DNA from: Candidatus Oxydemutator sp.
GTDB lineage: Bacteria; Pseudomonadota; Gammaproteobacteria; Poriferisulfidales; Oxydemutatoraceae
Reading direction: 5' to 3'
DNA length: 64,000 nt
Assembly (NCBI GenBank): GCA_965203445.1
Contig: OZ241883.1
Location: forward strand, 352,001-416,000
Under the pieces are notes generated by a model that searched no databases, was not told the origin of the DNA, and worked only from the letters and a program-made list of their open reading frames with translations. Shown here in pieces: positions 42,453 to 60,070 of the stretch (position 1 is its first letter; every line of letters begins with the position of its first letter). A program made the translations under genes and the position numbers.

Positions 42453-42467
42453 AGGTTCGGCGGATGA

Positions 42468-42630: not shown

Positions 42631-42756
42631 TTACAAGGAGTTTAACCCGGTTTATGGAAATTTCATAAACCGGGGTAAACTCCTTATAACTCCAATAATT
42701 CCGCGTTATATCAACGCAGAATAAATCCGTCGGATCTCGCCTGTCAGATGATCAAG

Positions 42757-43240: not shown

Positions 43241-43287
43241 ATGTCCCGTCCCGCAAAAACACTGGCATCTGACAGGAGGACACACCG

Positions 43288-43524: not shown

Positions 43525-44129
43525 TCCTGCACCATCTCCTCGGAGGAGAGCAGCATCGCATATACGCCGACCTTTCCGACAGCAATCTTTTAAGGCAATA
43601 CGGTTTTCTACAATCTGCCGTGGCCGCGGCGATAAACGTCAAACGGCCGCTGGTCTCAGCGACGCTTGTCAAAGCGTTGAATTATCACTCTATCGCGTGC
43701 CTGCATCCCAATGCCGGGGAATACCGCCCCTGTCCAGTGAAGGCGGGAGACTATGAACCGCCGGAGCATTTTCACGTGCCGGAGATGATGAACGACTTTA
43801 TCAACGTAGCCAACCGGAATTGGGATGCCTGTGACGCACCGTCTCTGGCCGCGTATTGTCTATGGCGCCTGAATTTCATCCATCCGTTTATTAACGGAAA
43901 CGGCAGAACGGCGCGCGCGCTTTGTTACTTTGTCGTCTGCGTCAAGTCTGGCGGTCTGATACAGGGCGAACCAATGCTGCCAACGTTGATTCGAGAAAGG
44001 CATGAAGAATATAGAGAATTACTAAGATCCACCGACAGAGAGGCCGAAAACGGAAATCCAGACTACTTGAATGGTTTGCGTGACTTTGTCGCCCGCTTGG
44101 TGGAACGGCAATTACGATCCGCGACCTGA
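43521..44129 (+). CDS. Fic-domain protein (copy 2)
   Basis: HPFINGNGRTARAL; 9 of 202 residues differ from copy 1. Confidence 0.92.
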   Translation: MILHHLLGGEQHRIYADLSDSNLLRQYGFLQSAVAAAINVKRPLVSATLVKALNYHSIACLHPNAGEYRPCPVKAGDYEPPEHFHVPEMMNDFINVANRNWDACDAPSLAAYCLWRLNFIHPFINGNGRTARALCYFVVCVKSGGLIQGEPMLPTLIRERHEEYRELLRSTDREAENGNPDYLNGLRDFVARLVERQLRSAT

Positions 44130-44175
44130 AGGTTCGGCGGATGATGCCGGCGGCATAGTCCGCTTGCAGAATAAA

Positions 44176-44244
44176 TCCGGCGGACGTCGCCTGTCGGATG
44201 ATGGGCATGGTGCGGGGCGTGATCCGCTTTGGCACTGGACGGCG
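44176..44244 (+). pseudogene. Decayed internal fragment of mrcA
   Basis: 57/69 nt identical to 40598-40666 (manual ungapped alignment). Confidence 0.85.
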
Positions 44245-44279: not shown

Positions 44280-47075
44280 TCATGCGCGATCCGCATTCAG
44301 AAGAATATCTTTTACGTCCGACGGGCTTCTTGAAACATCTGCGCACCACTGACCGAAACGACCGTCCTCGTTGACGGCGCGCGTCCACTCCTCCAGGAAA
44401 CGGCGCTTGGTTTTGTCCTGCTCCGTTTCCCGTCCCTTGGTTTCCAGCACGAGAAACTTTCCCGATTTCATGCGCACGATAAAATCCGGCCAGTACTTTC
44501 TGACGATCCCGTTGTGGGTATAGAGAATCTCAAAACCGAGATGGTCGTTTTTCACCCATGCGTCCACCGCCGGGTTGCGATCCAGCTCAAAAGCCTCGGC
44601 GGCTTCCCAGGTGCCGTCGTATACGCAGAAGTTGACGTGCGAGCGTTGGCTGTATTCACAGGGTCTGCTTGTGTACCACGTTCTCATATCGCCGGTCGAA
44701 CGAATCGGTCTGTCGCGATCAAACACCAGCTCGGTCCCGGCCACGTTTTCAAAGCGGATCGCGTTCTGAAAATGCTGCACGACTTTGGTCGCGTTCAGCG
44801 CGATCATCAGCCGCCGGCGCAAGGCGTCGTCATGATACGCCCTCGGTTCGATCTGAATCCGGTTTGAGCGGATGAACTCGTCCGCCAGACCGATGATTTG
44901 CGCTATCAGAGTCTCCCTGCCGCCTTTCCATTCTCCCTGCATCTGCTCATAGACGGACTGCGACGCCTCGAAAACAAGCCGCTGCATCCGCAATGTGCCG
45001 GCCAGGTTCTCGATGTCCACCGTCTCGATCTTTGTGACGTCGGCCTTGCCCTCGACCGTCGGCGCCAATTCCGCCAGACGAGGAGTTTGCTCGGCCTTGA
45101 GCGTCAGCGGCGCCACTTTCGCCCAATCTACGGAAAGTCTGGGCGAGTATGAATAATCTATCCGCACCACGTTCGGCCAGGTGATCTCGAATTGCCGTTT
45201 GTCCGCCACCGGCTCTATCGCCGTCTTGGGGACGGGCGGCGGCGGCGGCAGATCATCGCTCTGCTCATGCGGCAGAAAAGTGAACGGCACCCCGAAGACA
45301 TTGACGTATTCCGGATCGAGCATGCCGTTCTCGTTGAGGTCGTAGGAAAGGCGGCGCAGGCCGCGTCCCACGACCTGCTCGCACAACAACTGGCTGGTGA
45401 ACGCGCGCAGCCCCATGATGTGCGTTACGGTCCTGGCGTCCCAGCCCTCGGACAACATACCGACGGAAATCACTTTCTGTATCCGCTCGCCCGGCTGTCC
45501 GGGTTTGCCGACGGTATCCACCTGCCGGCGCAAAAACTCCGCCGCTTTTTCCTTGGATGTGCGTTTGCGGCCCGTCACTTCGGTGCCGCCGGCGCCGGCG
45601 CCGTTTATGGGCGTCGTTTCTTCCATGGCCTCGGCGGCCGCCAGAACCTTCGAGTCGACGTGGAGAATCCGCTCCGGGACGCACAATGCGTCAATCTGTA
45701 TTTTCTTTTTCCGTAAGGCATGATTGATCCGAGCGGCCGTCTCGGTGCGGTTGGCCACCGTGATCATCACTGGCGGAGTCGGTGCTCCTTCCCGTGCCCA
45801 CAGCGCCTTCGTTTTTTGCCAATCGTGGCCGAGCAGGGTATAGGCGATTCTTACAATGTCCGGCAGCGGCGTCTCGGGCTTGGCGCCGCCGTTGAAGTCG
45901 TCCTTGACTTCGGGGTCGTTGTATATGTGGTAGAGGCGCGACTTGTAGGTCCTGGCATCCGGCAGGGCGTCGTCGCGCACGACCACGCGGGGGGTCTTGA
46001 CCAGTCCGGACTCGACGGCGTCGCTCAGGGAAAAATCGCTGACGATCCAGCCGAACAGGTCTTCCTCGGAACTCTGTTTGCCGGACGGCATGAAGGGCGT
46101 GGCCGAAAAATCGTAGCACGCCAGAATCCCGCGCGCCCGGTGTATCCGATCCAGGCCGCCCACCCAGACGGTGGCTTCCTCGACGCTGTCTTTTGCGCCT
46201 TTGTTTTTTGCCCCGGGAGGGACGCGCCAAGCGTGATGCGCCTCGTCGTTGATGACCAGAACGTTGCGCGCCCCCGCCACGTCTCCGAGCACGTCGCGCA
46301 CGTATGCCTCGTCGCTCATCACGCCGCGCTTGTCCACGCCTTTCTTTCTCCGAATCTTGTCCGCGGTTTCCCAATGGAGGGTATGCCAGTTGCAGATACG
46401 CACCTTGCCGCGACGCATTTTGTCCATCAGTTCCGACGGCACAACGTCGAACTCTTTGTAGTAGTTGTCCGCGTCGGCAGGATGGAGAACGGAAAGACGG
46501 TTTTTTACGGTCAGGCCGGGAGCGACGATAAAGATGTTTTTTGAAAAGCGCGCGTCCTGAGGCGCGGCCACCTTGTTCAGGATATGCCAGGCTATGGCCA
46601 TCGCCATGACGACGGTCTTGCCGGTGCCGGTGGCCATCTTTGCGCACAACCGCCGAAACTCGCCGCCGTCGGAAGGGACGTCAATTCCCACCTTGGCGTC
46701 GGCGGGCGCCTCGGCGAACCAGATCAGGGTTTCTATCGCCTCCAGCTGGCAGAAGAAAAACCGCGGCCCGCTGCGCTGCTCATCAGCGTTCCAGTGATCC
46801 AGCAGGCGTCTGGTGATGCCGCTGACGCCGGGATAGCCGGCCTGCCGCCACGCCTTGATGCGCTTGCGAACGTCGTCAACCAGCGGTATGGGGACGAATA
46901 CACCCGGATCGTCGGTGCCCTTGAAACGCGGCGTCGCCTTCAAATACCCGGCGGGACGCCGCCCTGCTTCCTGCGAGAAAGCCTTGGTCTCACGAGAGTG
47001 GAACCAATGCTCGCGCGGCTCCTCGTAGGGGGAGTTGAGGATGAGGGGGGATGGTTTTTCTACATTGCCGGACAT
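44280..47075 (-). CDS. res: Type III restriction endonuclease Res subunit (BPTD_3080-like)
   Basis: MATGTGKT, NDEAHH, FSATP, MLSEGWD, QVVGRGLR; C-terminal PDFIV..LETKG nuclease. Confidence 0.93.
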   Translation of the reverse strand: MSGNVEKPSPLILNSPYEEPREHWFHSRETKAFSQEAGRRPAGYLKATPRFKGTDDPGVFVPIPLVDDVRKRIKAWRQAGYPGVSGITRRLLDHWNADEQRSGPRFFFCQLEAIETLIWFAEAPADAKVGIDVPSDGGEFRRLCAKMATGTGKTVVMAMAIAWHILNKVAAPQDARFSKNIFIVAPGLTVKNRLSVLHPADADNYYKEFDVVPSELMDKMRRGKVRICNWHTLHWETADKIRRKKGVDKRGVMSDEAYVRDVLGDVAGARNVLVINDEAHHAWRVPPGAKNKGAKDSVEEATVWVGGLDRIHRARGILACYDFSATPFMPSGKQSSEEDLFGWIVSDFSLSDAVESGLVKTPRVVVRDDALPDARTYKSRLYHIYNDPEVKDDFNGGAKPETPLPDIVRIAYTLLGHDWQKTKALWAREGAPTPPVMITVANRTETAARINHALRKKKIQIDALCVPERILHVDSKVLAAAEAMEETTPINGAGAGGTEVTGRKRTSKEKAAEFLRRQVDTVGKPGQPGERIQKVISVGMLSEGWDARTVTHIMGLRAFTSQLLCEQVVGRGLRRLSYDLNENGMLDPEYVNVFGVPFTFLPHEQSDDLPPPPPVPKTAIEPVADKRQFEITWPNVVRIDYSYSPRLSVDWAKVAPLTLKAEQTPRLAELAPTVEGKADVTKIETVDIENLAGTLRMQRLVFEASQSVYEQMQGEWKGGRETLIAQIIGLADEFIRSNRIQIEPRAYHDDALRRRLMIALNATKVVQHFQNAIRFENVAGTELVFDRDRPIRSTGDMRTWYTSRPCEYSQRSHVNFCVYDGTWEAAEAFELDRNPAVDAWVKNDHLGFEILYTHNGIVRKYWPDFIVRMKSGKFLVLETKGRETEQDKTKRRFLEEWTRAVNEDGRFGQWCADVSRSPSDVKDILLNADRA

Positions 47076-47088
47076 GACGTTTCGAGTT

Positions 47089-47652
47089 TCAATTTATCAG
47101 CGTCTCAATGGCAAAGTTTGTGCCTATGAGAGTCTTGATTCTTATATTCCTATAACGCTCCGTCCCTGCCAGCCTCGTTTTGGCCCGGGTCGGTTGTTTG
47201 TCAAGATTTTTGCTGGTTTGCTTGGCTATCAGAACGTATTTTGTTGAGGGTACTTCTCGGTTGTTCCCACATTCAATCTCACAAACCGAGAAAAGATAAT
47301 CCCAGATAGGCAATGAACGCCGGAGTTGCTCTTTTCCCTCTTCTTTTCTGGTCTCATCCAGGGATGTCTTCAGTTCAACCAGTACGACGTGACATTGCGT
47401 TTGCAGCTGATACACAAGGAGATAGTCACAGCGTTTTGCGATTGACTGCTGTCCTTGCTTCAGATAAGCATCCCAGTGCCCTCTTTCTTGTAAGGGAATC
47501 GTTAAAACGGGATCAGTCACGCCTGTAACCGTAACTTCCATATCCGACTGCTCATCCTCCAGTAAAATTTGTCCTCCGCTATTTTCGTTTGCCACGTTTG
47601 TCAAACTGCTATTCAAAATCTTTTCCAGCTCCTCTACCTTCAGAAATTCCAT
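47089..47652 (-). CDS. Hypothetical protein with PD-(D/E)xK-like motif
   Basis: KRCDYLLV...VLVELKT...EQL; starts 3 nt after the ATPase stop. Confidence 0.65.
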   Translation of the reverse strand: MEFLKVEELEKILNSSLTNVANENSGGQILLEDEQSDMEVTVTGVTDPVLTIPLQERGHWDAYLKQGQQSIAKRCDYLLVYQLQTQCHVVLVELKTSLDETRKEEGKEQLRRSLPIWDYLFSVCEIECGNNREVPSTKYVLIAKQTSKNLDKQPTRAKTRLAGTERYRNIRIKTLIGTNFAIETLIN

Positions 47653-47655
47653 CCT

Positions 47656-49065
47656 CTACTCCTCACCCACCTCTTCACTGGTATCTTCCAACCGATAGGT
47701 AAGCTCATTGGACGCCTTGTTGATTGTATCAATAGTCTTGTCAAAAACCGGTATATCAACTCCAAACTTGTCAATGTCGCAAGGGGTCAAGCCGCCATTC
47801 TCAGCCACATAACAACGCAATGATTCGGGTGACAAGCAATCATCCTTACCGTATCTCAGTCTTTTGATAGCCTTTTCTTTCTCTTTGAAGGAGCTGTTCA
47901 ACATAATCAGGTTGTTGATCTCTTTGAGAATATAATCGCTGTGGGTGGTGATCAACACTTTGATTCCCTTACGGACAAAGTGGGCCAGCATACGCGCCAT
48001 CATAATCTGATTCCGAGTATCCAGATGGCTTTCCGGCTCGTCAATAATGAGTAGTTGATCTGACCTTGCCACGTGTCGCAGGTAAAAATAAAGATCCGAT
48101 AAGCCACGCGCCGAGGAAGAAGCGATGTGCAAAGGTATGTCGAAGGGATTCTTTTGGGCTTCGGATACAAAGCGAATGTCATTATCACTGCTTTTATAAC
48201 ACCCGCCCATAAGGTTTTTAATATCATCATGCAGCTTGCTGTCTTCCAGCTCACTTTTCCCCTTAACGATATTGGGTATATCGCGCGTGTAGTTAATATT
48301 ATCCCTGATGGGCAAAGCATAACGGCTCGCAGTTTCGTCTATCAGTGCGAATGGAGAAAAGCGATCACTGTCTTTTTCATCCCCCATTTTTTGCAGCCTT
48401 TCGACCAGAAGGTTTTTGGCAAGATCCAATTCTTTGTAGAACAAGGAGATGCCAAAACGCTCAGCGGAAAGAATGAATGGAAAAGGAAATTCGGCCAGCA
48501 AAAACCGCATATATGAATGTGCGAGAAGAAAGACCACATCGGATTCCTGAAAATTCCCGAGTCTTCTTATAGAAAAAGTTAGAACCTCCTCTTTGTACTC
48601 AGCAAAAACAGACATCTTATTTGAATACCTTACTTCATCCTTGTACGGGCCCTCTGGGAAATCACGGTCAAAATTGACACTGATCTTCGCATCTGCGAAG
48701 TCGCCAGCCGGTAAACTGAATACGTTGGCAATTTCTCTATCGGAAAATTGGCTTGATAATTTTGCAATCAATGCCTGCCGTTCCTTGTTGAGCCTCGCCC
48801 GGTTTACTTTGCACTTATACTGCCCATCCTCCATCAGCTTCCTGCCGACTTGTTCAATATCAATGCCTTTAGCCTCAGGGTTTCCCCCATTCCCTGCGAA
48901 ATATCTTTCAAAATCCGGCCAGCCGACCCATTCCTTTAAAAACCCATAAAGGGTGTACACCAGGTAAGTTTTACCAGTGTTATTGTGACCGGCAATTATT
49001 GTTAAATCCCCGAGCTCCAGCTCGGCTTCAGTTATCGGGCCAATATGCTCGAAACGAAATTTCAT
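47656..49065 (-). CDS. ABC-type AAA_15/AAA_21 ATPase (defence-associated class)
   Basis: GHNNTGKT, IIDEPESHLD, ITTHS; low GC. Confidence 0.88.
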   Translation of the reverse strand: MKFRFEHIGPITEAELELGDLTIIAGHNNTGKTYLVYTLYGFLKEWVGWPDFERYFAGNGGNPEAKGIDIEQVGRKLMEDGQYKCKVNRARLNKERQALIAKLSSQFSDREIANVFSLPAGDFADAKISVNFDRDFPEGPYKDEVRYSNKMSVFAEYKEEVLTFSIRRLGNFQESDVVFLLAHSYMRFLLAEFPFPFILSAERFGISLFYKELDLAKNLLVERLQKMGDEKDSDRFSPFALIDETASRYALPIRDNINYTRDIPNIVKGKSELEDSKLHDDIKNLMGGCYKSSDNDIRFVSEAQKNPFDIPLHIASSSARGLSDLYFYLRHVARSDQLLIIDEPESHLDTRNQIMMARMLAHFVRKGIKVLITTHSDYILKEINNLIMLNSSFKEKEKAIKRLRYGKDDCLSPESLRCYVAENGGLTPCDIDKFGVDIPVFDKTIDTINKASNELTYRLEDTSEEVGEE

Positions 49066-49067
49066 CC

Positions 49068-49140
49068 CTACACCTCCAAAACCCGCAACCTTTCAAGGCC
49101 GCGGTCGTCCACCGTTTTAACGGCCATGTGTTTGTGCTTG
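49068..49140 (-). pseudogene. Decayed copy of the mod 3' end
   Basis: KHKHMAVKTVDDRGLERLRVLEV* vs mod EHKRIAVKIVDDRGVESLRVVNL*; 49/60 nt match 57436-57495. Confidence 0.88.
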
Positions 49141-49180
49141 CGACCTGCCCCCTGAATCAGGGCCACAGCCATTGGAGAGA
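49141..49180. mobile_element. Solo IS3-family terminal inverted repeat
   Basis: gacctgccccctgaatcagggccac matches the IS end at 42758 in 22/25 nt. Confidence 0.75.
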
Positions 49181-49192
49181 ATGCCCATTGTA

Positions 49193-49309
49193 TCAGGCCA
49201 CCCCCCACGAGAAAGTCCTGGTCTCCACTGAACGACGCCAATGCGCACGCGGCTCCTCACAGGAGGAATTGAGGATGAGGTGGGTTATTTGCTCTGTATT
49301 GCCGGACAT
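49193..49309 (-). pseudogene. Decayed copy of the res 5' end (38 codons)
   Basis: MSGNTEQITHLILNSSCEEPRAHWRRSVETRTFS vs res MSGNVEKPSPLILNSPYEEPREHWFHSRETKAFS (21/34 aa). Confidence 0.88.
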
Positions 49310-49394
49310 TCTGTTGGGTTTTCGGGCAAAAAAACATATTCAAAAAATGAAAATATTTATCGGCATATGTGAACGATCTCGTACGATATTCGGG

Positions 49395-52300
49395 TTAGCT
49401 ACGGGCTAGCTTGATAGCTTCCCTGAGCCTCCTCTCGATGCGCCTGCCCCTTCTGAAACCGAGGTCGCACCGCATTTCGGTCATCAACTGGTCCTCAGTC
49501 CGCAGCAGGCGGTCGGAGTTGATCCAGCGGGCGAGGGCCACCAGCTGGTCGGGGCGGTAGTTGGTGATGGCGTTGTAGCCAGCCGTTCCCTTGCAAGGCA
49601 CGCGCGGGCGCGGGCCGCGCGACGGCGCGGATGGCGGTTCGGCCACGGGCGGTGGTCCGGCCACGGGAGACGATTCGGTGGCGGGAGACGGCGCGTCGGC
49701 GTCCGCGACGGCCTTTCGCCATGCCGCCTCGGCCTTGTCCAGCTCAGCCTCGGGGTTGCGGAACCAAGCCGTCGACCAGATGCGGTGGAAGCGCCAACCC
49801 TTGTCTTCCAGCACTTGCTGGCGGAGGCGGTCGCGGTCGCGGGCCGTGGGGGTGGAGTGGTAGCTGGCGCCGTCGGCCTCGATGGCGAGCACCATGCGCC
49901 CGGGCTGGTCGGGATGGGCGCAGGCGAAATCTATGCGGTAGCCAGAGACTCCGTACTGGGCATTGACGGGGATACCGCGCCGCTCCAGCCCGTCCTTGAT
50001 GTCCAGCTCGAAGGGATTAAGCGGCTCGTCCACCACATCCGCGCCGAGGTTCTCGCCGCCGGAGGCCGCGAATTCGAGGTACTTCCGCAATAGCTCCACA
50101 CCCTTCGCGTCCGAACGCCCTGGCTCCATGTCGCGGTGGCTGAAGGAGGAGACAAGCGTGAGGTGGGAACGGGCGCGCGTGACGGCCACGTTCAACCGCC
50201 GCTCGCCACCCTCTCGATTAAGGGGGCCGAAGCTATAGGCCAGCCGCCCGTTCGCGTCCTTGTGATAGCCGACGCTGAGGATGATGGCGTCGCGCTCGTC
50301 GCCCTGCACGCGCTCGATGTTCTTCACGAAGAAGCGCTCCGCTTTCGTATCTGCGAAGAACTCATCCAGCGAAGGATCGTTCAGTTCGCCCAGGCGGTGC
50401 AGCAGGAAGTTCTCAATGTTGTTGGCATGAGGCAAGCCGAAGGCAATGACGCCCAGTGTCTCGCGCGGGCGCTCGCGGGCGTGCGCGATGACCAGATCAA
50501 CAACCTTCTCGATTTCGTCCGGGTGCGAGCGGGTACCGCGAGCACCGGGGAGCGGGCGGAAGGGGACGAGGCAGTGCTCGACGGGCGGATCGGCCAAGCT
50601 GCCGGGGAAGGTGGTCAGCCTGCCGCCGTAGATGTGGTTGTTGGAGAAAGCGATGAGACGAGCGTCGCGGCTGCGGTAGTGCCACTGGAGCATCGTGTCA
50701 CGCAGCAACGGCCCGGCGGCGTCGAGCAGGGACTCGATGTCGGCAGGGAGTGCCAGGGTGTCCTCCTCCTCGTCGCCGTCGTCCGTGGCGCCCCTGAAGA
50801 ACGGCGTGGGCGGCAGCTGGTGGCGGTCGCCCGCGATCACAGCCTGCGGCGCACGCGCGAGGCTGCCGATGGCCTTCGCCGGCCGAATCTGCGAAGCCTC
50901 GTCGAATACGACCACGTCGAACAGGTCGAGATCGGGGGGGATCATCTCGGTGGCGAGCACGGGCGACATCGTCCAACAGGGACGCAATGCGGAGAGCACG
51001 TGCGGGGCCCGCTTGAATAGCCGACGCACGCTCAGGTGGCCGCGCCGCTTGGCTGCCTCCCGCCGGATGATCTGCGTTTGATCGTGGTGTTCGTCCATCG
51101 CCTCCACGGTGGCCTCGGCGACGAGCCGCCGAATGCGCTGTGGCGTCAAAGAGAGATGCTTGCGGTCGATCTCAATGAACTTGTCACGGTGGTGGGAGTG
51201 AGCGGCGGAGTCGAAGGCAGAGAGGCGGCGGTCGGCGAACTCGAGGTCTTCGAGCACGCGCGACAGCCAGGCGTGCTCGACGGCGGCAGCGGCATGCTCC
51301 TGCGGGATGTCCTCGCCCACGCGCTCGAGGACGGTGGCGACCCCCGCCTCGCGGAACCCCGCCTCCAGTTTGCGGAGGCGAGGAAGGCTGGCGACCGCTG
51401 TCCTGCTGGAGTCGGACGCCAGCCTGTCCAACAGGGCGGCAAGGTCGTCAATGGTCCGCTCGTGAAGACCATTGTCCTTGATGATCGCACCCAGGGCGTT
51501 AAGCGCATGGACAAGCCTTTCGACGCGCTCTCGCGCGCCGTCCAGGCCAGCAGGCGTGCGCGGTTCACCGCCGTCCAAGCTCCGCCGCTGCCACTCGTCC
51601 AGTTGGTTCCCGGCGCTCCGGACCATATCGAGAGCATCGGTCGCAGAGAGCGTGGCCGGTTGCCGTGCTGTCTCCCGCAACGACCGCAGCGCCGAGCGGT
51701 ACTCTTTCGAGAAGCACCATGCCCATAGACGACCCGCGAAAGACCTGCCTGCCGGTGCCAATGTCGTGCCAAGCGCCGCATGGTCAAGGCGGTACACATC
51801 CTTGCCACGCGCGAGCATCCGCTCGACGTCCGACAGGAGCGTCAGCGCATCGCGCCACGCGGATACGGTGTCGGTGTCCGGCCGCGCGAGACCAACCTCG
51901 TCGAGTGCGATGAAGAGGGCATCGCGCGCGGTGGTGAGGTACGTGCCTGCCAGTTCGCGGACCAGTTCGAACGTCGCGCGCGCCTCGTCCGAAGTCGTGA
52001 TGGTAGTCCGGGACCATTCGGGGTGATTGGCAGCGAACGTGTGACCGTCGAGGCCAACCCATTCTCGTATCTCGCCTTCGAGCCGCCGGAACCCATCCTC
52101 ATCGAGGCCGCGAGCCGCGCTGGTGGACAGGCGCAGTTGCGTGCGCGCACCCCCGGGGATGGCGAGCAGGCGCTCTTCCACGTCGTAGAGGGACATCCCC
52201 CACGGATCGCGCCGGCAGTGGACAGCGTCGGCGTGGTCAAGCAGCGCATCGCGGTGGTTCCGCAGGTCGCCGTGCAATTCCGAGTAATCATGCGCGGGGA

Positions 52301-53450
52301 CGGTGGCAACGTGTCCGAGGGAGGCGGCGAGCGTGCGCGCGAACTCACGGCGGGAGGTGATGCCGCCGTGCATATCCATCACCAGATCGCCCAGCCCCAC
52401 GGCGTCGAGGCGCTTCGTGACAGCCTCGATAGCGGCGCGCTTCTCGGCTACGAAGAGAACGCGCTTGCCGCGGGCGATGAATGCTGCAATGAGGTTGGCA
52501 ATGGTCTGTGACTTGCCCGTGCCGGGCGGCCCCTGGATGACCAGCGACTCGCCGCCCAGTGCGCGATTGATGGCCATGTGCTGGCTGGAATCGGCATCGA
52601 GCACGAGAAACTCGTCCGCCAGCGGATCGGTATCCGGCTGGTCGGGCGCGGGATTGCAGATGCATCCCTTGAGCACCTCGTGCGCGTCCCGGTCACCCGC
52701 GATGGCGGCGATGAGGTCGTTCGCGGCAAACTGCTCGGCGTTCGCCTCCAGATCGCTCACCAGCGGCATGGTGGCGTAGGAGAACACGGCGGCGACGACG
52801 CGCCGTTCGATGGAGAATCGGGGGAGCGTAGCCCACAACTCTGCCAACTGGTGGAGCAGGGCCCAAAAGTCGTCGAGGTTCGTGGGCGACACCTCGGCCA
52901 CCGCCGCCTCGGAAGCCTCGATATTGATGCCATGCTCGCGCCGCAGGATGTGCGTAAGCACGGGGTTGAGGTGGGCGTCCCCGGAAACCATGATGGTGAA
53001 ATCGTGGCGGGCGGCGCCAGTGGCCTCGGCTTCCAGAGGCAGAAGGATGACGGGCGCGTTGGGGGCTGTCCCGTTATCAACCTCCCACTTCGCCAGTCCG
53101 ATGGCAGCGAAGAGCGTGGCGATGCCCCGCTCCTCGAGGTCTTCGCGGGCCTTGCGGTGGATGGCAGAAAAGCGGCGGCGGGCGTCGTCGAAGGCTCCGT
53201 TGTTGCCCTCGTGCGACGGGAAGAGCATCTTGAGCTTGACCTTGCTGCCCGCCAGCAGCTGGTTCAACTGCCGCGGATCGAGACCGTTGTCGTCGGCGCC
53301 GTTGTCGTCGGGTGGCGTGAGGTCGAGCGTGCTCTTCGGCAAGTCGTGGTAGTTGCGCAGGCGGTTGGGCCCCGTTGTATCCACGAGTTGCTGCTGCCAA
53401 CGCTTGGCAGCGGCGCGAACAACCTCGATTCGGTCGGCAGGTACAGGCAT
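49395..53450 (-). CDS. DUF4011-SF1 helicase-Vsr-like nuclease fusion (Hhe-like architecture)
   Basis: WQQQLVD..NRL N-terminus, QGPPGTGKS, DEASQ, HYRS, QGDERD, NVAVTRAR, AIEADGASYH..RDRLRQ..GWRFHRIWS. Confidence 0.88.
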   Translation of the reverse strand: MPVPADRIEVVRAAAKRWQQQLVDTTGPNRLRNYHDLPKSTLDLTPPDDNGADDNGLDPRQLNQLLAGSKVKLKMLFPSHEGNNGAFDDARRRFSAIHRKAREDLEERGIATLFAAIGLAKWEVDNGTAPNAPVILLPLEAEATGAARHDFTIMVSGDAHLNPVLTHILRREHGINIEASEAAVAEVSPTNLDDFWALLHQLAELWATLPRFSIERRVVAAVFSYATMPLVSDLEANAEQFAANDLIAAIAGDRDAHEVLKGCICNPAPDQPDTDPLADEFLVLDADSSQHMAINRALGGESLVIQGPPGTGKSQTIANLIAAFIARGKRVLFVAEKRAAIEAVTKRLDAVGLGDLVMDMHGGITSRREFARTLAASLGHVATVPAHDYSELHGDLRNHRDALLDHADAVHCRRDPWGMSLYDVEERLLAIPGGARTQLRLSTSAARGLDEDGFRRLEGEIREWVGLDGHTFAANHPEWSRTTITTSDEARATFELVRELAGTYLTTARDALFIALDEVGLARPDTDTVSAWRDALTLLSDVERMLARGKDVYRLDHAALGTTLAPAGRSFAGRLWAWCFSKEYRSALRSLRETARQPATLSATDALDMVRSAGNQLDEWQRRSLDGGEPRTPAGLDGARERVERLVHALNALGAIIKDNGLHERTIDDLAALLDRLASDSSRTAVASLPRLRKLEAGFREAGVATVLERVGEDIPQEHAAAAVEHAWLSRVLEDLEFADRRLSAFDSAAHSHHRDKFIEIDRKHLSLTPQRIRRLVAEATVEAMDEHHDQTQIIRREAAKRRGHLSVRRLFKRAPHVLSALRPCWTMSPVLATEMIPPDLDLFDVVVFDEASQIRPAKAIGSLARAPQAVIAGDRHQLPPTPFFRGATDDGDEEEDTLALPADIESLLDAAGPLLRDTMLQWHYRSRDARLIAFSNNHIYGGRLTTFPGSLADPPVEHCLVPFRPLPGARGTRSHPDEIEKVVDLVIAHARERPRETLGVIAFGLPHANNIENFLLHRLGELNDPSLDEFFADTKAERFFVKNIERVQGDERDAIILSVGYHKDANGRLAYSFGPLNREGGERRLNVAVTRARSHLTLVSSFSHRDMEPGRSDAKGVELLRKYLEFAASGGENLGADVVDEPLNPFELDIKDGLERRGIPVNAQYGVSGYRIDFACAHPDQPGRMVLAIEADGASYHSTPTARDRDRLRQQVLEDKGWRFHRIWSTAWFRNPEAELDKAEAAWRKAVADADAPSPATESSPVAGPPPVAEPPSAPSRGPRPRVPCKGTAGYNAITNYRPDQLVALARWINSDRLLRTEDQLMTEMRCDLGFRRGRRIERRLREAIKLARS

Positions 53451-53536
53451 GATTATTACTGTCCACTAACTCCTTTTTCGATGCCACGCAATTTTAACAA
53501 AGCCCTCAAACTGCCTCAGAAAACAGGACTACTTCA

Positions 53537-54742
53537 CTACTTTTTCCACAATGTCACTTTGAACGCATTTTCAGTTTCTTCAAAATCCGGTTCCCTGTCA
53601 TTTTGCTCAAGCATTAACGGAATTACCTTGCGGCGTATGCCCATGCCCCGTTCTTCCAGGTAGCCGTACTCCCTGAAAATCCTCGTGCACTTCGGATTGC
53701 GTAATACTTGCTCGCCGCTTTTGATGTTTTCTACGGTCACCCCATTAGGCAGCCCGCCGGGACTGATAATCTCCAGGCGGTTGCTATAGGCAGCTATGCG
53801 TACATAGTTACTTTTTGTCCAGTCCCTGTGTATGAGGGCATTGACAATCAACTCCCTGACGGCCTCATATGGATAGTCCCAGGTTCGCCTGCGTGTCGTT
53901 TCCTGCAACTCCTCCTTGCTGATGTGTGGCCTGATAAGTGCTATCAGCCTGTCGTGCAGGGCGGGTTCAATGGCTTTGTTGCCTGAACTCTCGCCGCGAA
54001 ATTCCAGAAAAGGCGCATCCAGAATTTCATCGAGGACACTGTCGTAATCCTTATCTTCGCCCGGATACACCGTAAGGCGCACAACCGCCTGTGGCAGTCT
54101 CAATCCGGGTTGTCTGGCAAACAGTACATACGCGAAATAACTGCATGTATATGGCTCGTCCTCACCCACCAGGAAATTCCGGCTGATCAGCATTTGCCGC
54201 CAATCCGATATGGAAGAATCATCCAGGACTCTTTCAAAGTACTCGACGTAGCGGCGCCTATCCAAATCTTCCATAGAGGAACCGTGCACGGGGAAATTAT
54301 CTGTGGCCAGCAACCCCCCGGAGGCGAACAAGCGGGCCTGTTGTTCACGCCCGGCCAACCGGCAGGTGTTCCCGTAACGCACGTAAACGTCTTCACGATC
54401 ATGATGTTTGAGCACATGAGGCTTGCTGTTGCCTTGAGGGATTTGCACGACGGCGACGGATTTTCCCTCGATATCGAATATTTCGTAACCCGGCTCTATA
54501 TGCGGGTGGACGTGCCTGCCAATGACCGTATCCATCAACCATTCCTGAAGATTGCCTCGCTGGGTACCGCTGACGTGGCCATCATCCTCGACGCCTATCA
54601 GAATAGTGCCGCCGTTCATGTTGGCGAAGGCAACGATTTCTTTGGCAAATGTCTCGGCGCGCTCATTGTCACGCTTAAACTCCAATTTCGCACCCCCGCC
54701 CTGTGCAATCATTGCCAATACATCACTTTTCAGCATTATCAA
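53537..54742 (-). CDS. Schlafen/AlbA_2 domain plus HATPase_c_4 (RecG-C-like) protein
   Basis: LEFKR, IVAFANMNGGTILIGVEDDG, RELIVNALIHRDW, ISPGGLP, RNP, GMGI; start TTG 54742 or ATG 54736. Confidence 0.88.
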   Translation of the reverse strand: MIMLKSDVLAMIAQGGGAKLEFKRDNERAETFAKEIVAFANMNGGTILIGVEDDGHVSGTQRGNLQEWLMDTVIGRHVHPHIEPGYEIFDIEGKSVAVVQIPQGNSKPHVLKHHDREDVYVRYGNTCRLAGREQQARLFASGGLLATDNFPVHGSSMEDLDRRRYVEYFERVLDDSSISDWRQMLISRNFLVGEDEPYTCSYFAYVLFARQPGLRLPQAVVRLTVYPGEDKDYDSVLDEILDAPFLEFRGESSGNKAIEPALHDRLIALIRPHISKEELQETTRRRTWDYPYEAVRELIVNALIHRDWTKSNYVRIAAYSNRLEIISPGGLPNGVTVENIKSGEQVLRNPKCTRIFREYGYLEERGMGIRRKVIPLMLEQNDREPDFEETENAFKVTLWKK

Positions 54743-57426
54743 TAACCGTATTTGCGTCCGCGCATCTCAAAGGCCGCCTTGCCGCCTTCCAGTATCTTGG
54801 CCGCCTGCTTGCGTACTGCCGGTTTATCAATGGAACCCGCCTCCTTGACTTTCCCCTTGTCCTTTTCGCTGTGCAATACCGCGATCAATTCGGCATCACC
54901 AAAAACTGGAATATTGGCGTTGTGGGTTGCAAAAATGAACTGTCGGCCAGTCTTGAACTTTCTCAAGTCACGTACAATCCGATCGGCGATGAAGGCGTTA
55001 TCCAAGTTATCCTCCGGCTGATCAATAATCAATGGATCATCACGGTTTAATAGCAGCAGGTTCAAAATAGCAGTACATTGTTGACCAGTGGAAAGGCTGT
55101 CCAGCGGTTTATACTCCTCGCCGTCATGCGCGATATTCAATTCGATCTCAATTTTATCCTCCAATTCAATCTCTTCCAGCTCGAGTCTTTTCTTCAAATC
55201 CAGCCTTGATAATTTTTCAGCGGTACTTTTTTGCATTCCGACAGACCTGTATTCCTTCATAAAGGCCTCTACATTTCCTTTCTCTGCCCATTTTGACCAA
55301 GCCAACAGGTTCAAATCGGCTACTTCATCCAGCCATTTTATTCTGGCTTCGCCTATACCCCCAATATCGAGCAAAAAAACTTTCAGTGGTTGCAGATCGC
55401 CAAAACGTTTTACAGTAAGTCTCACTTTCCCTTTCAAGTCATTTTCATTTAAATTCTCTACGGCTTCTTGCAGAGCCCTATATCGCTCAAAGGCAGTTTG
55501 GCGATATTCTTCCATAAGATCTTCTCTTTCTTTTTTAAGAACCCCGATCAACTGCTTTTGGCGACGGTGCTCTTCTTTTTGTCTGTCTATACGTCTCAGC
55601 TCCTCGATAATGTCCGTGTATTCCTGCCCCAATTCGCTACCTGGCTTTCCTGATTGTTCCGGCAACTGGGCCTTTACCTGACGCAGATCATCTTCGATTT
55701 TCTCGACCTCGCTTTCCCATTCTTTTTCTAATGCAGCGAGTTCATTGGAAGTGTCCTCCAAGCTTTTATCCGCTTGCTCAACCATACCGTCCGTTTGTTC
55801 CTTCAGCCTCTCAAGTGCTCCTCGCATCTTTGCCAGGATAACTCTGTCGGGTAGTGCGCTGATTCTGGATTCCTGCAAGAATTCCAAGTCAAATACTTCC
55901 TCATACCTTTTCAGCCAATCCTTGACTAGCGCAACCTGCTCCTTGACACGTGCCTGGATATTTTTTTCCTTTCCGACCAGATCAACCTTTTTCAATTTCT
56001 TGCTTACACCCAGATCTTCAAAACGCTTCAATTGTTCCTGCAGCATCGGTATCCGCTGAACGGAACTATCCAGATTTTCAAACTCTTTGTCCGCCTTAAT
56101 CCATTTTTCTCTATTGTCCGCCATTCGTTTCCTGCTTTCCCGAAGACTTCCATCAAACTTATCCCTACCAGATAAAAAGCCGTTCATCAGCTCCCGCTTG
56201 GCTGTATCGTTTTCTACGATTTCCAGGATCTCATTCTGTCCCAACAATGTAACGGCAGGCAAAATTTCTTTCGAACTAAGATTAGAAACTTCGCCATTCT
56301 TGTTTTTCACGATGGCCCGTTCGCCAAAACGCCTGCTGATCGTGTAACACTGGCTCGACTGCGCCCTCGATTTGACGCTTAGGGTAATTTTTGAATCGCC
56401 CAGATTTTTTTTATAAAACTCATTGGATACCTTGCTTCCCTCCGACACGTACCGTTCCAGGACGTAGCGTATGCCTTCAATCAGAGTTGTTTTACCAGTG
56501 CCACGGCCACCGATAACGGCATTTAAATTTGGGGAGAAATAGAGTGTATTTTCCTCAAAAAATCCTTTGCCTTTGCCTTCCCATTGAATGGAACTGATAA
56601 CTGAATAAGAAGGCTCTGCAATATCATGATTCAATCGGATGCGGGATTCAGGATCGTGGAACGCCTGCCTGAAAGCCTCAAAACTGGGTTCGGTCATTTT
56701 CACTAGGCAGGATGCAGAAGTATCTGACAGTGTTTCAGGCTTATCTATATCCTTGGCATTGATAATGACGATAGGCTTTTCTCTTTTGTAATCAAGATTT
56801 TTGTTTTCTATGATTTTCCTGTATCTAGCTAAATCTTCTTTTTCCAACTGTAAGTCTTCTATACGTCCGGGAATTTGTCCGACGATTACTACTTTCTCTT
56901 TTTTCCACAAATGTACGAGGTTTCCGCCACTGCCGTCTAATCTCAATAAGCCATTCTTACCGGTCATATGTGCGGCGTACCAGAAGCCGTTTTGCTCATC
57001 TATTTTTTTAGCAATATCTTCGCAGCTTAATGAGGAAGGGTGGGTTGGTTCGCACTGAAGCTGGGCGTAGTTTGTGCCCATCAACTGGGCAAGATGCCCG
57101 TTGAGGCTATCCAAGGGAGTATCTTCAGCATAAAGACAAACCATATGAATATTCTCGGAACTGGAAATCTCAAACCCCGGAAACACGGTGAGATCTTTAT
57201 CTCGATCCCGCAAAAAGTTCCGTAGGCCTTCCGAGTCTTTAACTCCTCCGTGATCTGCAAGTCCTACAACTTTGATTTTATTCTGTTTGCATTGCCACAA
57301 TACTTCCTGGTTGTAATTTTCTGCGCTCGATTTTGGCTGTCCCCGATACTCCAGGCCGTAGGTACAGGGATTAACCTGCAATGCACACTTGTAAAAGCGT
57401 GCTCCCTGATATTCCTCGTTATTCAT
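54739..57426 (-). CDS. PHP-like domain plus SMC/ABC ATPase (TrlF/Ppl-like)
   Basis: N-terminal ADH, FPGFE, H-containing PHP-type motifs; GGRGTGKT, coiled coil, LSTGQ, IIDQPEDNLD, ATHN; ATGA overlap with mod. Confidence 0.85.
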   Translation of the reverse strand: MNNEEYQGARFYKCALQVNPCTYGLEYRGQPKSSAENYNQEVLWQCKQNKIKVVGLADHGGVKDSEGLRNFLRDRDKDLTVFPGFEISSSENIHMVCLYAEDTPLDSLNGHLAQLMGTNYAQLQCEPTHPSSLSCEDIAKKIDEQNGFWYAAHMTGKNGLLRLDGSGGNLVHLWKKEKVVIVGQIPGRIEDLQLEKEDLARYRKIIENKNLDYKREKPIVIINAKDIDKPETLSDTSASCLVKMTEPSFEAFRQAFHDPESRIRLNHDIAEPSYSVISSIQWEGKGKGFFEENTLYFSPNLNAVIGGRGTGKTTLIEGIRYVLERYVSEGSKVSNEFYKKNLGDSKITLSVKSRAQSSQCYTISRRFGERAIVKNKNGEVSNLSSKEILPAVTLLGQNEILEIVENDTAKRELMNGFLSGRDKFDGSLRESRKRMADNREKWIKADKEFENLDSSVQRIPMLQEQLKRFEDLGVSKKLKKVDLVGKEKNIQARVKEQVALVKDWLKRYEEVFDLEFLQESRISALPDRVILAKMRGALERLKEQTDGMVEQADKSLEDTSNELAALEKEWESEVEKIEDDLRQVKAQLPEQSGKPGSELGQEYTDIIEELRRIDRQKEEHRRQKQLIGVLKKEREDLMEEYRQTAFERYRALQEAVENLNENDLKGKVRLTVKRFGDLQPLKVFLLDIGGIGEARIKWLDEVADLNLLAWSKWAEKGNVEAFMKEYRSVGMQKSTAEKLSRLDLKKRLELEEIELEDKIEIELNIAHDGEEYKPLDSLSTGQQCTAILNLLLLNRDDPLIIDQPEDNLDNAFIADRIVRDLRKFKTGRQFIFATHNANIPVFGDAELIAVLHSEKDKGKVKEAGSIDKPAVRKQAAKILEGGKAAFEMRGRKYGY

Positions 57427-60011
57427 AAGTTCACCACCCGCAGGCTTTCGACGCCGCGGTCGTCTACTATTTTTACGGCTATGCGTTTGTGCTCGCCCGG
57501 CTGGAAGGGCAGCGACGTTACGCCGTGATAGTTCTTTATCAAATCCTGATCTATTTCGGCTTTCAGGCTTTTGGCGAGTTTTGACCAGCCGTCTTTGTTG
57601 CCGGCCATCGGGAAAAACACCTGTTTCGGGTACAGGCTTCGTCCGTCATAGTCGGTGTCCAGCATCCAGACGGCTATCTGGCTCTGGTCGCCGGATTCGA
57701 GTTCGCCGGTTCTGGTGTTGAAATAATCGAAGCCGCGAACCTCCACCCGCCATTGGCCTTCGTCGGCGCCTTCGCCAATCCGGTGCGCTTCCACGTCCGG
57801 CTGGCCGACGAGCCAGAAACTGTCGCTGCCGCGCTGTTTTTTGCGCAGGTCTTCGGTTTGCAGGTCGGCGTTCATCTGCACTTTCAGCAGCGTCATGCCC
57901 GGCCAGTCGGTTTCATCAACGTCTTTCGCCGCCTCGGGGTCGAACTGGAAGGCGACGAAGATGATAATCGCGGGCTTGGGGCGCAAGGTGCCGGCTTCCT
58001 CGAGGGCGCGTTCCACCTGTCGCTGTTCCAGCGGCGCGTGTTCGGGGCCGAAGCAGATGACGACGCGCCGCGGCTGGTACGCGGTCGCGGCCTTTTCCGC
58101 CACCTTGTCGGCGCCGCTGTCGTCGGGGCGGGTCTCGGCTTCGGCGTGCAGATGCTCTCCGGGAAACGGCTCCACCCGCGAGAACATGATCCGCTGGCCG
58201 CTTTTGCCGCGGATGCCGGTCTTCAGCAGTTCATTCCGCCATTCGTCCTGGCGCAGCGTCTCGCCGGAGCGGGCGATGGAGTCGGCAGTCTCTTGCTTCT
58301 CCCTCTCGGAGAGGGTTGGGGTCGGGGGCGCCTTTTCTACCATCTCTGCAATGGATTTGACCATCGGCGCCGGCACCGCTTCCACGGTGAAGGGACCGGT
58401 TACGCGGGCCTTTTTGGTGTCGCGCAGCGGCTGGTCGTAGAGGGTTTCGGTGGCCGGTGGTTCGTTATTGGCGATGCTTTTTAACGTGATATGTGGAACC
58501 GTCTTGTACTTGAAACCACTGCCCACGCCTTCGTCGGGATAAGCCAGTTGGTAGTAGTCAAATACCGCAGCTATCAACCGCTGCTTGGCAAGCGTCAGTG
58601 CCACACGGGAGGTATCGCAGGTAATCCAGCGCCGGCCCCATTGCTCGGCGACATGGGCGGTGGTGCCGCTGCCGCAGGTCGGGTCAAAGACTAAATCGCC
58701 GGGGTCAGTGGTCATCAACATGCAGCGTTGGATGACTTTATTGGAGGTCTGTACAGCATAAAGCATATCAGTCGCTCCATGCGTATCGTCCCATATGTTA
58801 TGCAGAGACTGAACGGGGAAATCATCATAGTACTGGACAAAACAAGGCAAGGCTCCTGGTGCCATAACCCTCTTTTTAGAAATTAGATTTTCCATCCCCT
58901 TCCGATGAGTGCGCCAACTTTTCTTACCACACTTGATTAGTTGTCCATCAAGTTTAAAATCGTACATACAAGTTGGCGTATAACCAGAGGAAGACAGGGC
59001 AGACGTGAAGAAAGGCCGACCATCTCGAGGCAAAAGATTAGGGTTATTCTTTTCCTCACGGGTCATCTTTCGACGTTCCCCATTATTCAACTCGACCCAT
59101 GTATATCCAGTGTTTTGTCCTATTGGCTTTTTCTCAAAAAGGTTTCTGAATTTCGCTTTCTTACCATCTTTCGCATACCAAACCAAGTAGTCGGATATTC
59201 CAGGCAGACCAGAGCTTCCAAGAGGAAGAGTTTTCTTAAAAGTAATCAAACTCACAAAATTCTCCGTCCTAAACACCTCATCCATCAGATTCCGCACCAA
59301 ATGCACGTTCTCATCCGAAATCTGCACAAAGCACGATCCGCTTTCATGCAGCAACTCCCGCGCCAGCAGCAGGCGGTCGCGCATGTAAGTCAAGTACGAA
59401 TGGATCCCCAACTCCCAGGTATCCCGGAACGCGCGGATCATCTCCGGTTCGGCGGTCAGGTCCTCGTCCTTGCCGTCCTTCACGTCGCGCTGGTTGACGA
59501 ACGGCTGAAAATTGCTGCCGTAGCGAATCCCGTAAGGCGGGTCCATATAAACGCACTGCACCTTGCCCGCCATGCCCTCTTTCTCCAGCAGCGAGTTCAT
59601 CACCAGCAGGCTGTCGCCGGCGACCAGACGATTGCTCCAGCCGTGCCGGTGCCGGTAAAACTCGACCGCCTCGCGCAGCGGCGGGTTCTGCTCGGCGGAC
59701 GAGAACAAAGGCTGCTGCGGCATGCCGCCGTTGCCGTTCGCTTTGCGCACCGCCTCGATAATCGTGCGCGCCTCGATGCGCTCGTGCACGTGCAGCGAGA
59801 CCGTCGGCACCTCGAAGGAAGTATGCTCGGCTTTGCCCGCCCATTGCAGCGCCGGATCAATGTGCTGATCGTAGGTCCAGGTCTTGTTCCGGCCCGCGTC
59901 CGCGTCCGTATCCGGCGTGACCAGTCCCACCGGCGGATTGTTGACGCGCGCCTTGTCCGCGTGGGCGTAGCTTTCTATCGGCTTTTTCCGGTTTGCCTTT
60001 TTTCTGGGCAT
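57423..60011 (-). CDS. mod: Type III R-M methyltransferase Mod subunit (m6A)
   Basis: YMDPPYG, FDPTCGSGTT, central variable region; ATG 60011. Confidence 0.93.
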   Translation of the reverse strand: MPRKKANRKKPIESYAHADKARVNNPPVGLVTPDTDADAGRNKTWTYDQHIDPALQWAGKAEHTSFEVPTVSLHVHERIEARTIIEAVRKANGNGGMPQQPLFSSAEQNPPLREAVEFYRHRHGWSNRLVAGDSLLVMNSLLEKEGMAGKVQCVYMDPPYGIRYGSNFQPFVNQRDVKDGKDEDLTAEPEMIRAFRDTWELGIHSYLTYMRDRLLLARELLHESGSCFVQISDENVHLVRNLMDEVFRTENFVSLITFKKTLPLGSSGLPGISDYLVWYAKDGKKAKFRNLFEKKPIGQNTGYTWVELNNGERRKMTREEKNNPNLLPRDGRPFFTSALSSSGYTPTCMYDFKLDGQLIKCGKKSWRTHRKGMENLISKKRVMAPGALPCFVQYYDDFPVQSLHNIWDDTHGATDMLYAVQTSNKVIQRCMLMTTDPGDLVFDPTCGSGTTAHVAEQWGRRWITCDTSRVALTLAKQRLIAAVFDYYQLAYPDEGVGSGFKYKTVPHITLKSIANNEPPATETLYDQPLRDTKKARVTGPFTVEAVPAPMVKSIAEMVEKAPPTPTLSEREKQETADSIARSGETLRQDEWRNELLKTGIRGKSGQRIMFSRVEPFPGEHLHAEAETRPDDSGADKVAEKAATAYQPRRVVICFGPEHAPLEQRQVERALEEAGTLRPKPAIIIFVAFQFDPEAAKDVDETDWPGMTLLKVQMNADLQTEDLRKKQRGSDSFWLVGQPDVEAHRIGEGADEGQWRVEVRGFDYFNTRTGELESGDQSQIAVWMLDTDYDGRSLYPKQVFFPMAGNKDGWSKLAKSLKAEIDQDLIKNYHGVTSLPFQPGEHKRIAVKIVDDRGVESLRVVNL

Positions 60012-60070
60012 CTGGCTTTTGCGGGGTTGCTGTGGCAGTTCCCCGAAGGGCGCACTCACTTATTGTAACC

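Follow-up and report, generated by a model that had tools for sequence, protein, structure and literature searches.

The window analysed here is a stretch of 64,000 nucleotides from Candidatus Oxydemutator sp. (contig OZ241883.1, positions 352,001 to 416,000 of the forward strand). On its minus strand, the mod and res genes of a type III R-M system are found on the right strand and in the right order, with 10,347 nt of cargo between them (Table 1). The five intact same-strand genes in this interval place the locus within the definition of an embedded defence system (Payne et al. 2024). Read in the direction of transcription, the row is mod-(Ppl-like, AlbA, helicase)-res'/IS end/'mod-(PD-T4-4 A, partner)-res, where res' and 'mod stand for a decayed start of res and a decayed 3' end of mod. 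This is the layout proposed in an earlier note on this DNA, and it is borne out by Pfam, PADLOC and BLASTN. The same note had described the locus as integrase-free, in agreement with our scan of the main island ORFs between 41 and 61.7 kb, where no integrase or recombinase gene was detected.

Table 1. Genes of the operon and pieces of the scar, in window coordinates.
Feature	Position	Strand	Basis or description
mod, type III methyltransferase, first gene	57423..60059	-	Pfam N6_N4_Mtase 2.8e-29; PADLOC MTase_III 1.2e-156
Ppl-like ABC-type ATPase, cargo 1 gene 1	54739..57426	-	PADLOC Ppl 1.3e-32; Pfam AAA_23/AAA_21
Schlafen/AlbA_2 protein, cargo 1 gene 2	53537..54742	-	Pfam SLFN_AlbA_2 1e-25; C-terminal HATPase_c_4 1.5e-21
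PDC-S37/Hhe-type superfamily-1 helicase, cargo 1 gene 3	49395..53450	-	PADLOC PDC-S37 3.5e-266, Hhe 4.7e-139
Scar, 242 nt	49068..49309	-	
res', decayed res start, first 34 codons	49208..49309	-	BLASTN to 46974-47075
Solo right end, IS3-family element	49142..~49207	-	orfB stop codon region to inverted-repeat tip
TGATACAAT, extended -10-like motif	49187..49195	-	Faces out of the IS end toward PD-T4-4
34-codon open frame	49068..49172	-	ATG in the IS end, through 'mod, stop 2 nt before the PD-T4-4_A ATG
'mod, decayed mod 3' end, last ~24 codons and TAG	49068..49141	-	BLASTN, nhmmer
PD-T4-4_A / PDC-M47A-type ABC ATPase, cargo 2 gene 1	47656..49065	-	PADLOC PD-T4-4_A 1.3e-110, full length; Pfam AAA_15, AAA_21
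Small putative partner, cargo 2 gene 2	47089..47652	-	PADLOC PDC-M47B 3.9e-7 only
res, type III restriction subunit, last gene	44280..47075	-	Pfam ResIII 3.1e-8; PADLOC REase_III 4.2e-11

In the first cargo block, two stretches of the Ppl-like ATPase were matched, the best-scoring of which covers only residues 769-889, the C-terminal ~120, and Pfam detects no PHP domain in this protein at E<=1e-3. Its gene overlaps the mod stop codon by 4 nt, and the overlap with the AlbA gene is also 4 nt. The helicase matches the Pfam families MTES_1575 (a C-terminal nuclease domain), AAA_11, AAA_12 and DUF4011. In the second block, the small gene that the earlier note had called a nuclease has no Pfam match. 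In the resident res, ResIII represents a superfamily-2 helicase domain, and the REase_III match is partial, covering residues 500-578.

The two blocks are separated by a gap of 329 nt between the helicase and PD-T4-4_A. Self-BLASTN of positions 49000-49460 against the window resolves this gap into three pieces, all on the operon strand and in operon order. The first, res', matches the 5' end of the resident res with 77/102 identical nucleotides (75.5%, E 2e-16). It keeps its ATG and an open frame of 38 codons from 49309 to 49193, in which 21 of 34 amino acids are identical to the start of Res; the last four codons and the stop (TGA at 49193-49195) derive from the IS remnant that follows. Among 73 res heads, its best match is the resident one, with a score of 52 against 31 for the runner-up, and it is also recovered by a profile search built from 81 relatives (nhmmer E 1.4e-9). 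The last piece, 'mod, matches the 3' end of the resident mod (49081-49141 against 57436-57496; 50/61 nt, 82%, E 8e-11) and is likewise found by profile search (nhmmer E 2.8e-10, profile positions 107-178 of 180). Its stop codon, TAG at 49068-49070, lies 2 nt ahead of the PD-T4-4_A ATG at 49065. As controls, the two profiles gave no match on the opposite strand and a single one, at E 0.5, in five shuffles.

The middle piece matches positions 42758-42795 of the window (49142-49180; 84.6% over 39 nt, E 8e-5) and belongs to a dispersed repeat of ~57 nt. The 2.38-Mb genome has at least six more copies of this repeat, which are 88% identical to the middle piece over 57-58 nt. In a decayed full copy at 1981.5-1982.7 kb of the genome, this repeat spans the region from the orfB stop codon to the tip of the terminal inverted repeat, and the frame that ends there carries HTH_21, rve (1.4e-16) and rve_3 (9.9e-22) domains. 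The paralogous end at 42758 adjoins an OrfA with an HTH_Tnp_1 domain (1.8e-21; window 42830-43096). From these OrfA and OrfB domains, which stand beside other copies, the scar itself holding an end only, the middle piece is assigned by sequence as the right end of an IS3-family element. TG...CA tips define the IS3 family; the tip reads TGACC in the copies c984, c1982 and c1223 and CGACC in the scar. Inverted partner ends are present in c1223 and c1916, and two copies are short elements that keep both ends. Three copies are solo ends, namely two others and that of the scar, for which no inverted partner was found within 260 nt. The tip of the scar copy (49142) abuts the first base of 'mod (49141) and its inner side joins res'. 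The same element is scattered in the island as decayed copies or solo ends, at 41091 and 42756, besides at least six other places.

All three pieces that the earlier note had claimed for this gap, including the solo IS3-type end, are therefore at their places and far beyond chance by these E values, and its coordinates and counts were right to a base or two. It had also pointed to an extended -10-like motif, which is indeed present at that place and strand but turns out to belong to the IS end: it includes the stop codon of orfB as its TGA, and the motif is conserved in the other copies. A two-hexamer promoter scan of 48900-49600 returned no site, and neither did a terminator scan. The IS end may supply an outward promoter. 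Judging from its sequence, the scar today probably acts merely as a linker between the cassettes, in which 'mod would provide a ribosome-binding site and a short frame before PD-T4-4_A. The GGAGG ahead of the PD-T4-4_A start codon sits within 'mod, and the 34-codon frame makes translational coupling to PD-T4-4_A possible. Comparable short frames end at or beside the first gene of the downstream cassette in two related loci, L096 and L097.

To place this locus among its relatives, res was used as the query. The search yielded 80 loci from genomes, 80 from metagenomes and 8 from seven genomes that share the family or order of the window. In 124 of them (72 genome loci, the 8 loci of the relatives and 44 metagenome loci), the end of mod and the start of res could both be used, with res homologues 51-67% identical to that of the window. 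The two genes touch or overlap in 40 loci, and 82 hold 0.2-10 kb of mostly defence or toxin-antitoxin cargo, in agreement with the claim that the mod-res junction is a variable cargo site. In the genome loci, the two genes touch in 11 cases (-10 to +14 nt between them) and enclose 184-9257 nt in 61, and all eight loci of the family and order relatives hold 1.1-10.1 kb. In the metagenome loci, they touch in 29 cases, stand 78 and 103 nt apart in two and enclose 488-2700 nt in 13, the short contigs biasing this set against long cargo. The cargo falls into about 67 sequence clusters. PADLOC matches at E<=1e-8 were obtained for 16 of 38 cargo representatives, under the names PDC-S09, PDC-S35, HEC-01, HEC-02, SoFic, PDC-M41, PDC-S03, PD-T4-4-like, PD-T4-6 and E1-E2. 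Pfam matches were obtained for 17 of 26 representatives and include PIN, HepT, TIR and an E2/ThiF-JAB/multi-ubiquitin set, as well as an AAA+ ATPase with an S8 protease and two transposases.

Individual cassettes recur, alone in some loci and stacked in different order in others, which supports the exchangeable cassettes of the earlier note. L023 holds only a Ppl and an AlbA gene, 64% and 69% identical to those of the window; further AlbA homologues are found in L096 (52.6%) and as an orphan copy in the genome G004 (57%), and tblastn detected no homologue of the helicase in 168 related loci. A block of an ATPase pair with ubiquitin-like genes is the sole cargo in L092, L094, L095 and L098, comes first in L096 and comes second in L097; the AAA+/S8 pair closes the cargo of L096 and opens that of L097. 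In L030, the cargo of L024 is joined to cargo of the L028 type, with a res' in between. PDC-S35 stands alone in L021, L068 and L007 and together with the PDC-S09/HepT pair in L002, L010 and L019. Stacks without a scar include L002, L010, L019, L013, L035 and the ATPase-plus-ubiquitin block, among others; they may reflect another stacking route, or their scars may have been lost.

The earlier note had suggested looking for relatives with one of the two cassettes of the window. L023 has two genes of the first block alone, and a single-cassette mod-PD-T4-4-res locus is absent both from the 124 loci and from the 61 genomes that the search of relatives covered (G000, to which the locus belongs, included). 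In L009 and L026, PD-T4-4 sits outside the mod-res interval, L016 holds only an 80-residue remnant and L025 only a distant relative, so that none of these four qualifies. The same set contains no near-identical mod-res locus with one cassette that could represent the donor or the pre-stacking allele, the closest res being 67% identical. Among the joints read from the contigs of four runs, one of 61730 to 44166 (+AC) was considered as an empty site or circle and rejected, since the paralogous stretch 42589-42752 of the window aligns across exactly that junction. As a separate observation, joints of 60951 to 53006 and of 61758 to 46948 correspond to records at other depths or of lower likeness.

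Scars were searched in the related loci with nucleotide profiles of 81 res heads and of the mod tails of those 81 loci that reach 180 nt, against 70 cargo intervals and then 13 metagenome intervals. Of the 82 other cargo-bearing loci, 6 contain internal res heads, namely L096 (two), L097, L067, L045, L030 and L004. L003 also has a res-head remnant, upstream of res on the operon strand, its mod lying off the fetched DNA. Such scars, for which the earlier note had proposed a search, hence recur in other loci. In a scan of both strands of 169 sequences (2.46 Mb of locus DNA), every non-canonical hit falls inside the mod-res interval and on the operon strand wherever the mod end and res start could be placed. 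Only three loci (the window, L096 and L097) have an internal mod tail, and in each it lies just downstream of a res head; the joints of a res head with a mod tail are therefore found in two other genomes of the window's family, with different cargo. In L097, 56 res codons run in frame straight into 25 mod codons, and the joint contains neither a spacer nor an IS. In L096, res' and 'mod are about 130 nt apart; the spacer between them was rejected as an IS, its sole other match in the genome G006 being an intergenic stretch, ~70% identical, that lies upstream of a methyltransferase-like ORF. The scars of the gammaproteobacterial loci (L003, L004, L045 and L067) consist of a res head without a mod tail, and L045 and L067 share one scar by descent, as they have the same frameshift. 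The scars hence represent at least five independent lineages: the window, L096, L097, L030 and the gammaproteobacterial group.

In G004, an orphan AlbA gene is followed by a res head of 330 nt, and neither mod nor a full-length res was detected in the 33.9 kb fetched around this unit, which shows that cassettes can move with a flanking piece of a host gene. A res-head search of 401 genomes across the phylum gave matches in 48 at E<=0.01, mostly distant paralogues, and no new scars; G000 alone had more than one match (four, with just two of them at this locus, the res start and the scar). No scar was found in the 13 cargo-bearing metagenome loci, whose contigs are short.

Comparison of the remnants with the resident genes indicates where they came from. 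In the window, res' is identical to its own res head at 77/102 positions and 'mod to its own mod tail at 50/61 (0.75 and 0.82). The corresponding values are 271/316 (102/110 over the first 110 nt) and 46/53 in L096, and 153/170 and 52/64 in L097. At comparable lengths, own-locus identities amount to 0.93/0.87 in L096 and 0.87/0.81 in L097, and identities between loci reach at most 0.79. Each remnant is thus closest to the mod or res of its own locus, which points to recombination between sister alleles or within the locus and, at the sequence level, fits scars that are copies of resident genes or near-identical alleles and not of distant donors. The same observation speaks against the general exchange system envisaged in the earlier note. 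Nor do the conserved mod end and res start that it had cast as homology arms appear in our comparison: mean pairwise nucleotide identity across loci amounts to 0.61-0.75 in the mod tail and to 0.38-0.65 in the res head, no better than for the rest of the genes, so that such arms would be usable for homology only between near-identical alleles. The three mod-tail remnants, in the window, L096 and L097, all begin 63-78 nt before the mod stop, within ~15 nt of each other, and the ends of the res-head remnants vary widely, between about 55 and about 320 nt. All three mod-tail loci have a short frame that stops at the next start codon. The clustered starts might reflect a lower limit set by function (the ribosome-binding site and short frame) and an upper one set by the instability of repeats.

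On balance, we lean towards reading the scar as the seam at which unequal or illegitimate recombination between near-identical mod-cargo-res alleles added a second cassette, a mechanism read from the anatomy alone. The starting point would be two near-identical alleles of one R-M system with different cargo, mod-A-res and mod-B-res, where A (Ppl-like, AlbA and helicase) was already in place and B (PD-T4-4 A and its partner) was added behind it. In an unequal illegitimate crossover, the res head of the first allele would have been joined, near codon 35, to the mod tail of the second, broken ~73 nt before its stop codon. One possible route is an incoming fragment that was held by homology in res at one end while the other end was joined illegitimately; another is a circularised 'mod-B-res fragment that integrated in the Campbell manner through the res head. 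Both routes would give mod-A-res'/'mod-B-res with the outer mod and res intact, the outcome that would be retained under selection for a functional R-M system. DNA is added and a segment of the anchor duplicated both in homology-facilitated illegitimate recombination, by one homologous anchor and one illegitimate joint, and in Campbell-type integration, by one crossover with a circle; this matches the pattern of the scars. The remnants would since have drifted to 75-82% identity with the resident genes, and the stack would now be fixed, because homologous deletion between such drifted repeats is unlikely. No dedicated recombination system for stacking is indicated. Three features fit poorly with a joint between near-identical alleles: the gammaproteobacterial scars without a mod tail, the scarless stacks and the clustered mod-tail starts, the last of which weigh against it because random illegitimate breakpoints predict no clustering. 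In addition, the IS end lies exactly at the joint of the window, so the original junction is not preserved there.

The position of the IS end also raises the question of its part in the event. It could have come with the incoming DNA, or have been inserted later and then mostly deleted. The earlier note considered that it may have made the joint. In that case, an IS3-family copy in the mod tail of the incoming or a neighbouring unit would have been fused to the res head by IS-mediated deletion, or by recombination between copies of the IS, and later mostly lost. The direct contact of the IS tip with 'mod and of its inner side with res', and the decayed copies and solo ends throughout the genome and the island, agree with this, and one contig of depth 2 (run X2) links position 57462 in the resident mod tail to the IS end at 49142 with 4 letters between, a weak lead that comes from a single low-support metagenome record. 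With one IS end left, however, a target duplication is unreadable, and the idea is weakened further by the in-frame joint of L097, which has no IS, and by the spacer of L096, which resembles a non-IS intergenic region. Since neither of these joints involves an IS, the IS end appears secondary and not required for such joints, and we regard its having made the one in the window as unlikely.

A more far-reaching possibility is that the final ~70 nt of mod form a docking module together with the initial 100-300 nt of res, with cassettes travelling between alleles as 'mod-cargo-res units, perhaps by way of circles, a single crossover in the res head and a preferred break ~70 nt before the mod stop; we give this a similarly small chance. 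In-place tandem duplication of mod tail, cargo and res head, after which homologous exchange with a different allele would have replaced one of the two cargo copies, predicts remnants closest to the resident mod and res, as seen in every locus examined. It nevertheless needs two events where one suffices, and none of the 124 loci has the same cassette on both sides of a scar, the repeated cargo pieces of L006 and L042 being cargo genes split by transposase genes, which makes this route improbable.

An identical final structure would also result from two complete tandem operons, mod-A-res and mod-B-res, by a single internal deletion of most of the first res and the second mod. Several type III-like loci per genome are indeed carried by G000 and its relatives, but a complete tandem pair was seen in none of the 168 fetched loci, and paralogous operons with nearly identical mod and res, as required here, would be unstable; we consider this origin very improbable. 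A dedicated integron-like site-specific system, in which cassettes are captured at attachment sites formed by the mod tail and the res head, would suit the permuted order of cassettes and the mod-tail remnants that begin within about 15 nt in three loci, but is hardly credible given that the scanned island ORFs encode no integrase or recombinase, that res-head remnants end anywhere from about 55 to about 320 nt, that conservation of the arms does not exceed that of the remaining gene sequence and that each remnant copies its own resident gene.

Recombination between near-identical alleles thus seems to account best for the stack, and the similar remnants elsewhere suggest that type III R-M operons often collect defence genes by such joining. 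If this recombination runs between alleles of one methylation specificity, the R-M system would decide which strains trade defence cargo. The host-gene fragments at the boundaries constitute a readable record of cassette addition, and in practice profiles of host-gene ends can mark cassette boundaries in long embedded regions. If mod tails and res heads instead acted as a docking module, they would form an integrase-free counterpart of integrons and could explain embedding and stacking in multi-gene defence systems generally.

Embedding itself is already known; the type III R-M system as its site and the scars appear to be a new form of it. In the literature searched, with most subscription journals lying outside it, neither host-gene remnants at the boundaries of embedded cassettes nor the stacking of cargo between type III mod and res is described. 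Embedding of defence genes has been published for Hma, BREX, DISARM and type I R-M (bioRxiv 10.1101/2024.01.29.577857), and according to the main text of that work it serves to uncover new defence systems, its origin being left open under the idea of a 'genomic sink'. With boundaries marked as they are here, this origin becomes answerable by genome surveys and simple recombination experiments.

The likeness to the cases in the main text of Payne et al. ('guilt-by-embedding'; 10.1101/2024.01.29.577857) is close: defence genes of the same orientation sit inside a multi-gene defence system, between its genes, and the cargo described here carries several of their candidate names as PADLOC matches (PDC-S37, PDC-M47, PDC-S09, PDC-S35, HEC-01 and HEC-02). 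Their main text uses 'type III' only in 'DRT type III', whereas the host here is a type III mod-res pair; the words 'recombination', 'remnant' and 'exchange' have no occurrence in it, and host-gene fragments mark the cassette boundaries here. PrrC in the EcoprrI type IC hsd locus is likewise an ABC-type ATPase defence gene inside an R-M operon, possibly as a backup (PMC12707154; 10.1101/2024.01.29.577857). It differs in being a single embedded gene in a type I locus, and the passages on it in these two sources mention neither stacking nor host-gene remnants. The mod-res site also resembles the fixed chromosomal site described in part of the same source (PMC12707154), where restriction and defence genes are interchangeable between conserved anchor genes; the anchors there are housekeeping-type flanking genes, whereas here they are the two halves of one R-M enzyme. 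Finally, sedentary chromosomal integrons, as presented in bioRxiv 10.1101/2024.07.02.601686, likewise carry tandem defence cassettes in one orientation behind a fixed point. Integrons need IntI and attC, whereas the scanned main ORFs of this island include no integrase, and its joints are copies of host genes with breakpoints that vary.

Homologues of parts of the cargo of the type III R-M locus also occur separately. In genome G004, a 330-nt res-head fragment comes immediately after an AlbA homologue 57% identical to that of the window (locus L181:15463-16981, away from the R-M locus of the same genome); neither mod nor full-length res was detected within the 33.9 kb retrieved around this AlbA/res-head unit. 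In the window, AlbA and the helicase are separated by 86 nt (53451-53536) in which no res or mod remnant is detectable. Since Ppl and AlbA are present without the helicase in the related locus L023, gene content suggests that the helicase joined the window cargo as a separate addition.

Homologues of PD-T4-4 A and B are found just outside the mod-res pair in two relatives, upstream of mod in one (L009:443-2399; 61% and 41% identical) and downstream of res on the opposite strand in the other (L026:12938-14913; 44% and 32% identical). The cassette thus docks beside the R-M genes as well as between them. Cargo is also decayed and disrupted in relatives: a PD-T4-4_A homologue is reduced to its last ~80 residues inside a 375-nt gap (L016:9677-9916), and cargo genes are split by a DDE_Tnp_1 transposase gene (L042:7777-9913) and by an IS66 transposase gene (L006:7950-9965).

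In the relative's locus L096, the spacer between the decayed res start and the decayed mod end (13119-13219) is ~70% identical to a stretch elsewhere in the same genome, G006, located upstream of a methyltransferase-like ORF (L183:2882-2986). The motif TTATAAT is present in the spacer, together with a 9-bp hairpin, so the two stretches may represent a shared promoter or leader element.

Matches to the IS3-family element whose right end lies in the scar between the two cargo cassettes occur at no fewer than six positions in the genome of the window, G000 (Table), and no intact copy was found among the five orfA matches there. Stops and frameshifts mark the sole full-length copy read, at 1981.5-1982.7 kb, as decayed. 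Copies c1223 and c1916 are MITE-like, having lost internal sequence, and c1815 and c2241 each consist of a solo end. In metagenome run X2, a single depth-2 contig connects position 57462 in the resident mod tail with the IS-end sequence at 49142 across four intervening letters, the orientation being that of the scar; it could stem from a rare insertion of the IS into the mod tail or from another organism.

Repeated features in and around the R-M locus, and IS3-family matches in G000
Feature	Position	Remarks
IS3-family element matches	G000, 984.6, 1223.5, 1815.1, 1916.7, 1982.7 and 2241.4 kb	
Tandem duplication	window 41091-42487 and 42756-44164	95.1% identity over 1409 nt
Two Fic pairs	window 41623-42452 and 43288-44129	next to res
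AT-rich tandem repeat	window 61340-61710	101-nt unit, 3.7 copies; between AAA ATPase gene (60154-61344) and hemE

Each copy of the duplicated block carries the left end of an IS3-family element, whose orfA is truncated, together with a small ORF and a Fic/DOC gene, and it is the tandem duplication of this block that places two Fic pairs next to res. In the paralogous stretch 42589-42752, a diverged unit of the 101-nt repeat (42589-42716) passes directly into a copy of 44166-44202, so that positions 61733 and 44166, which bound the 17.5-kb R-M block, adjoin each other there, in an arrangement resembling a circular permutation. Judging from this arrangement, the whole 17.5-kb block may formerly have been a circular or iteron-bearing element.
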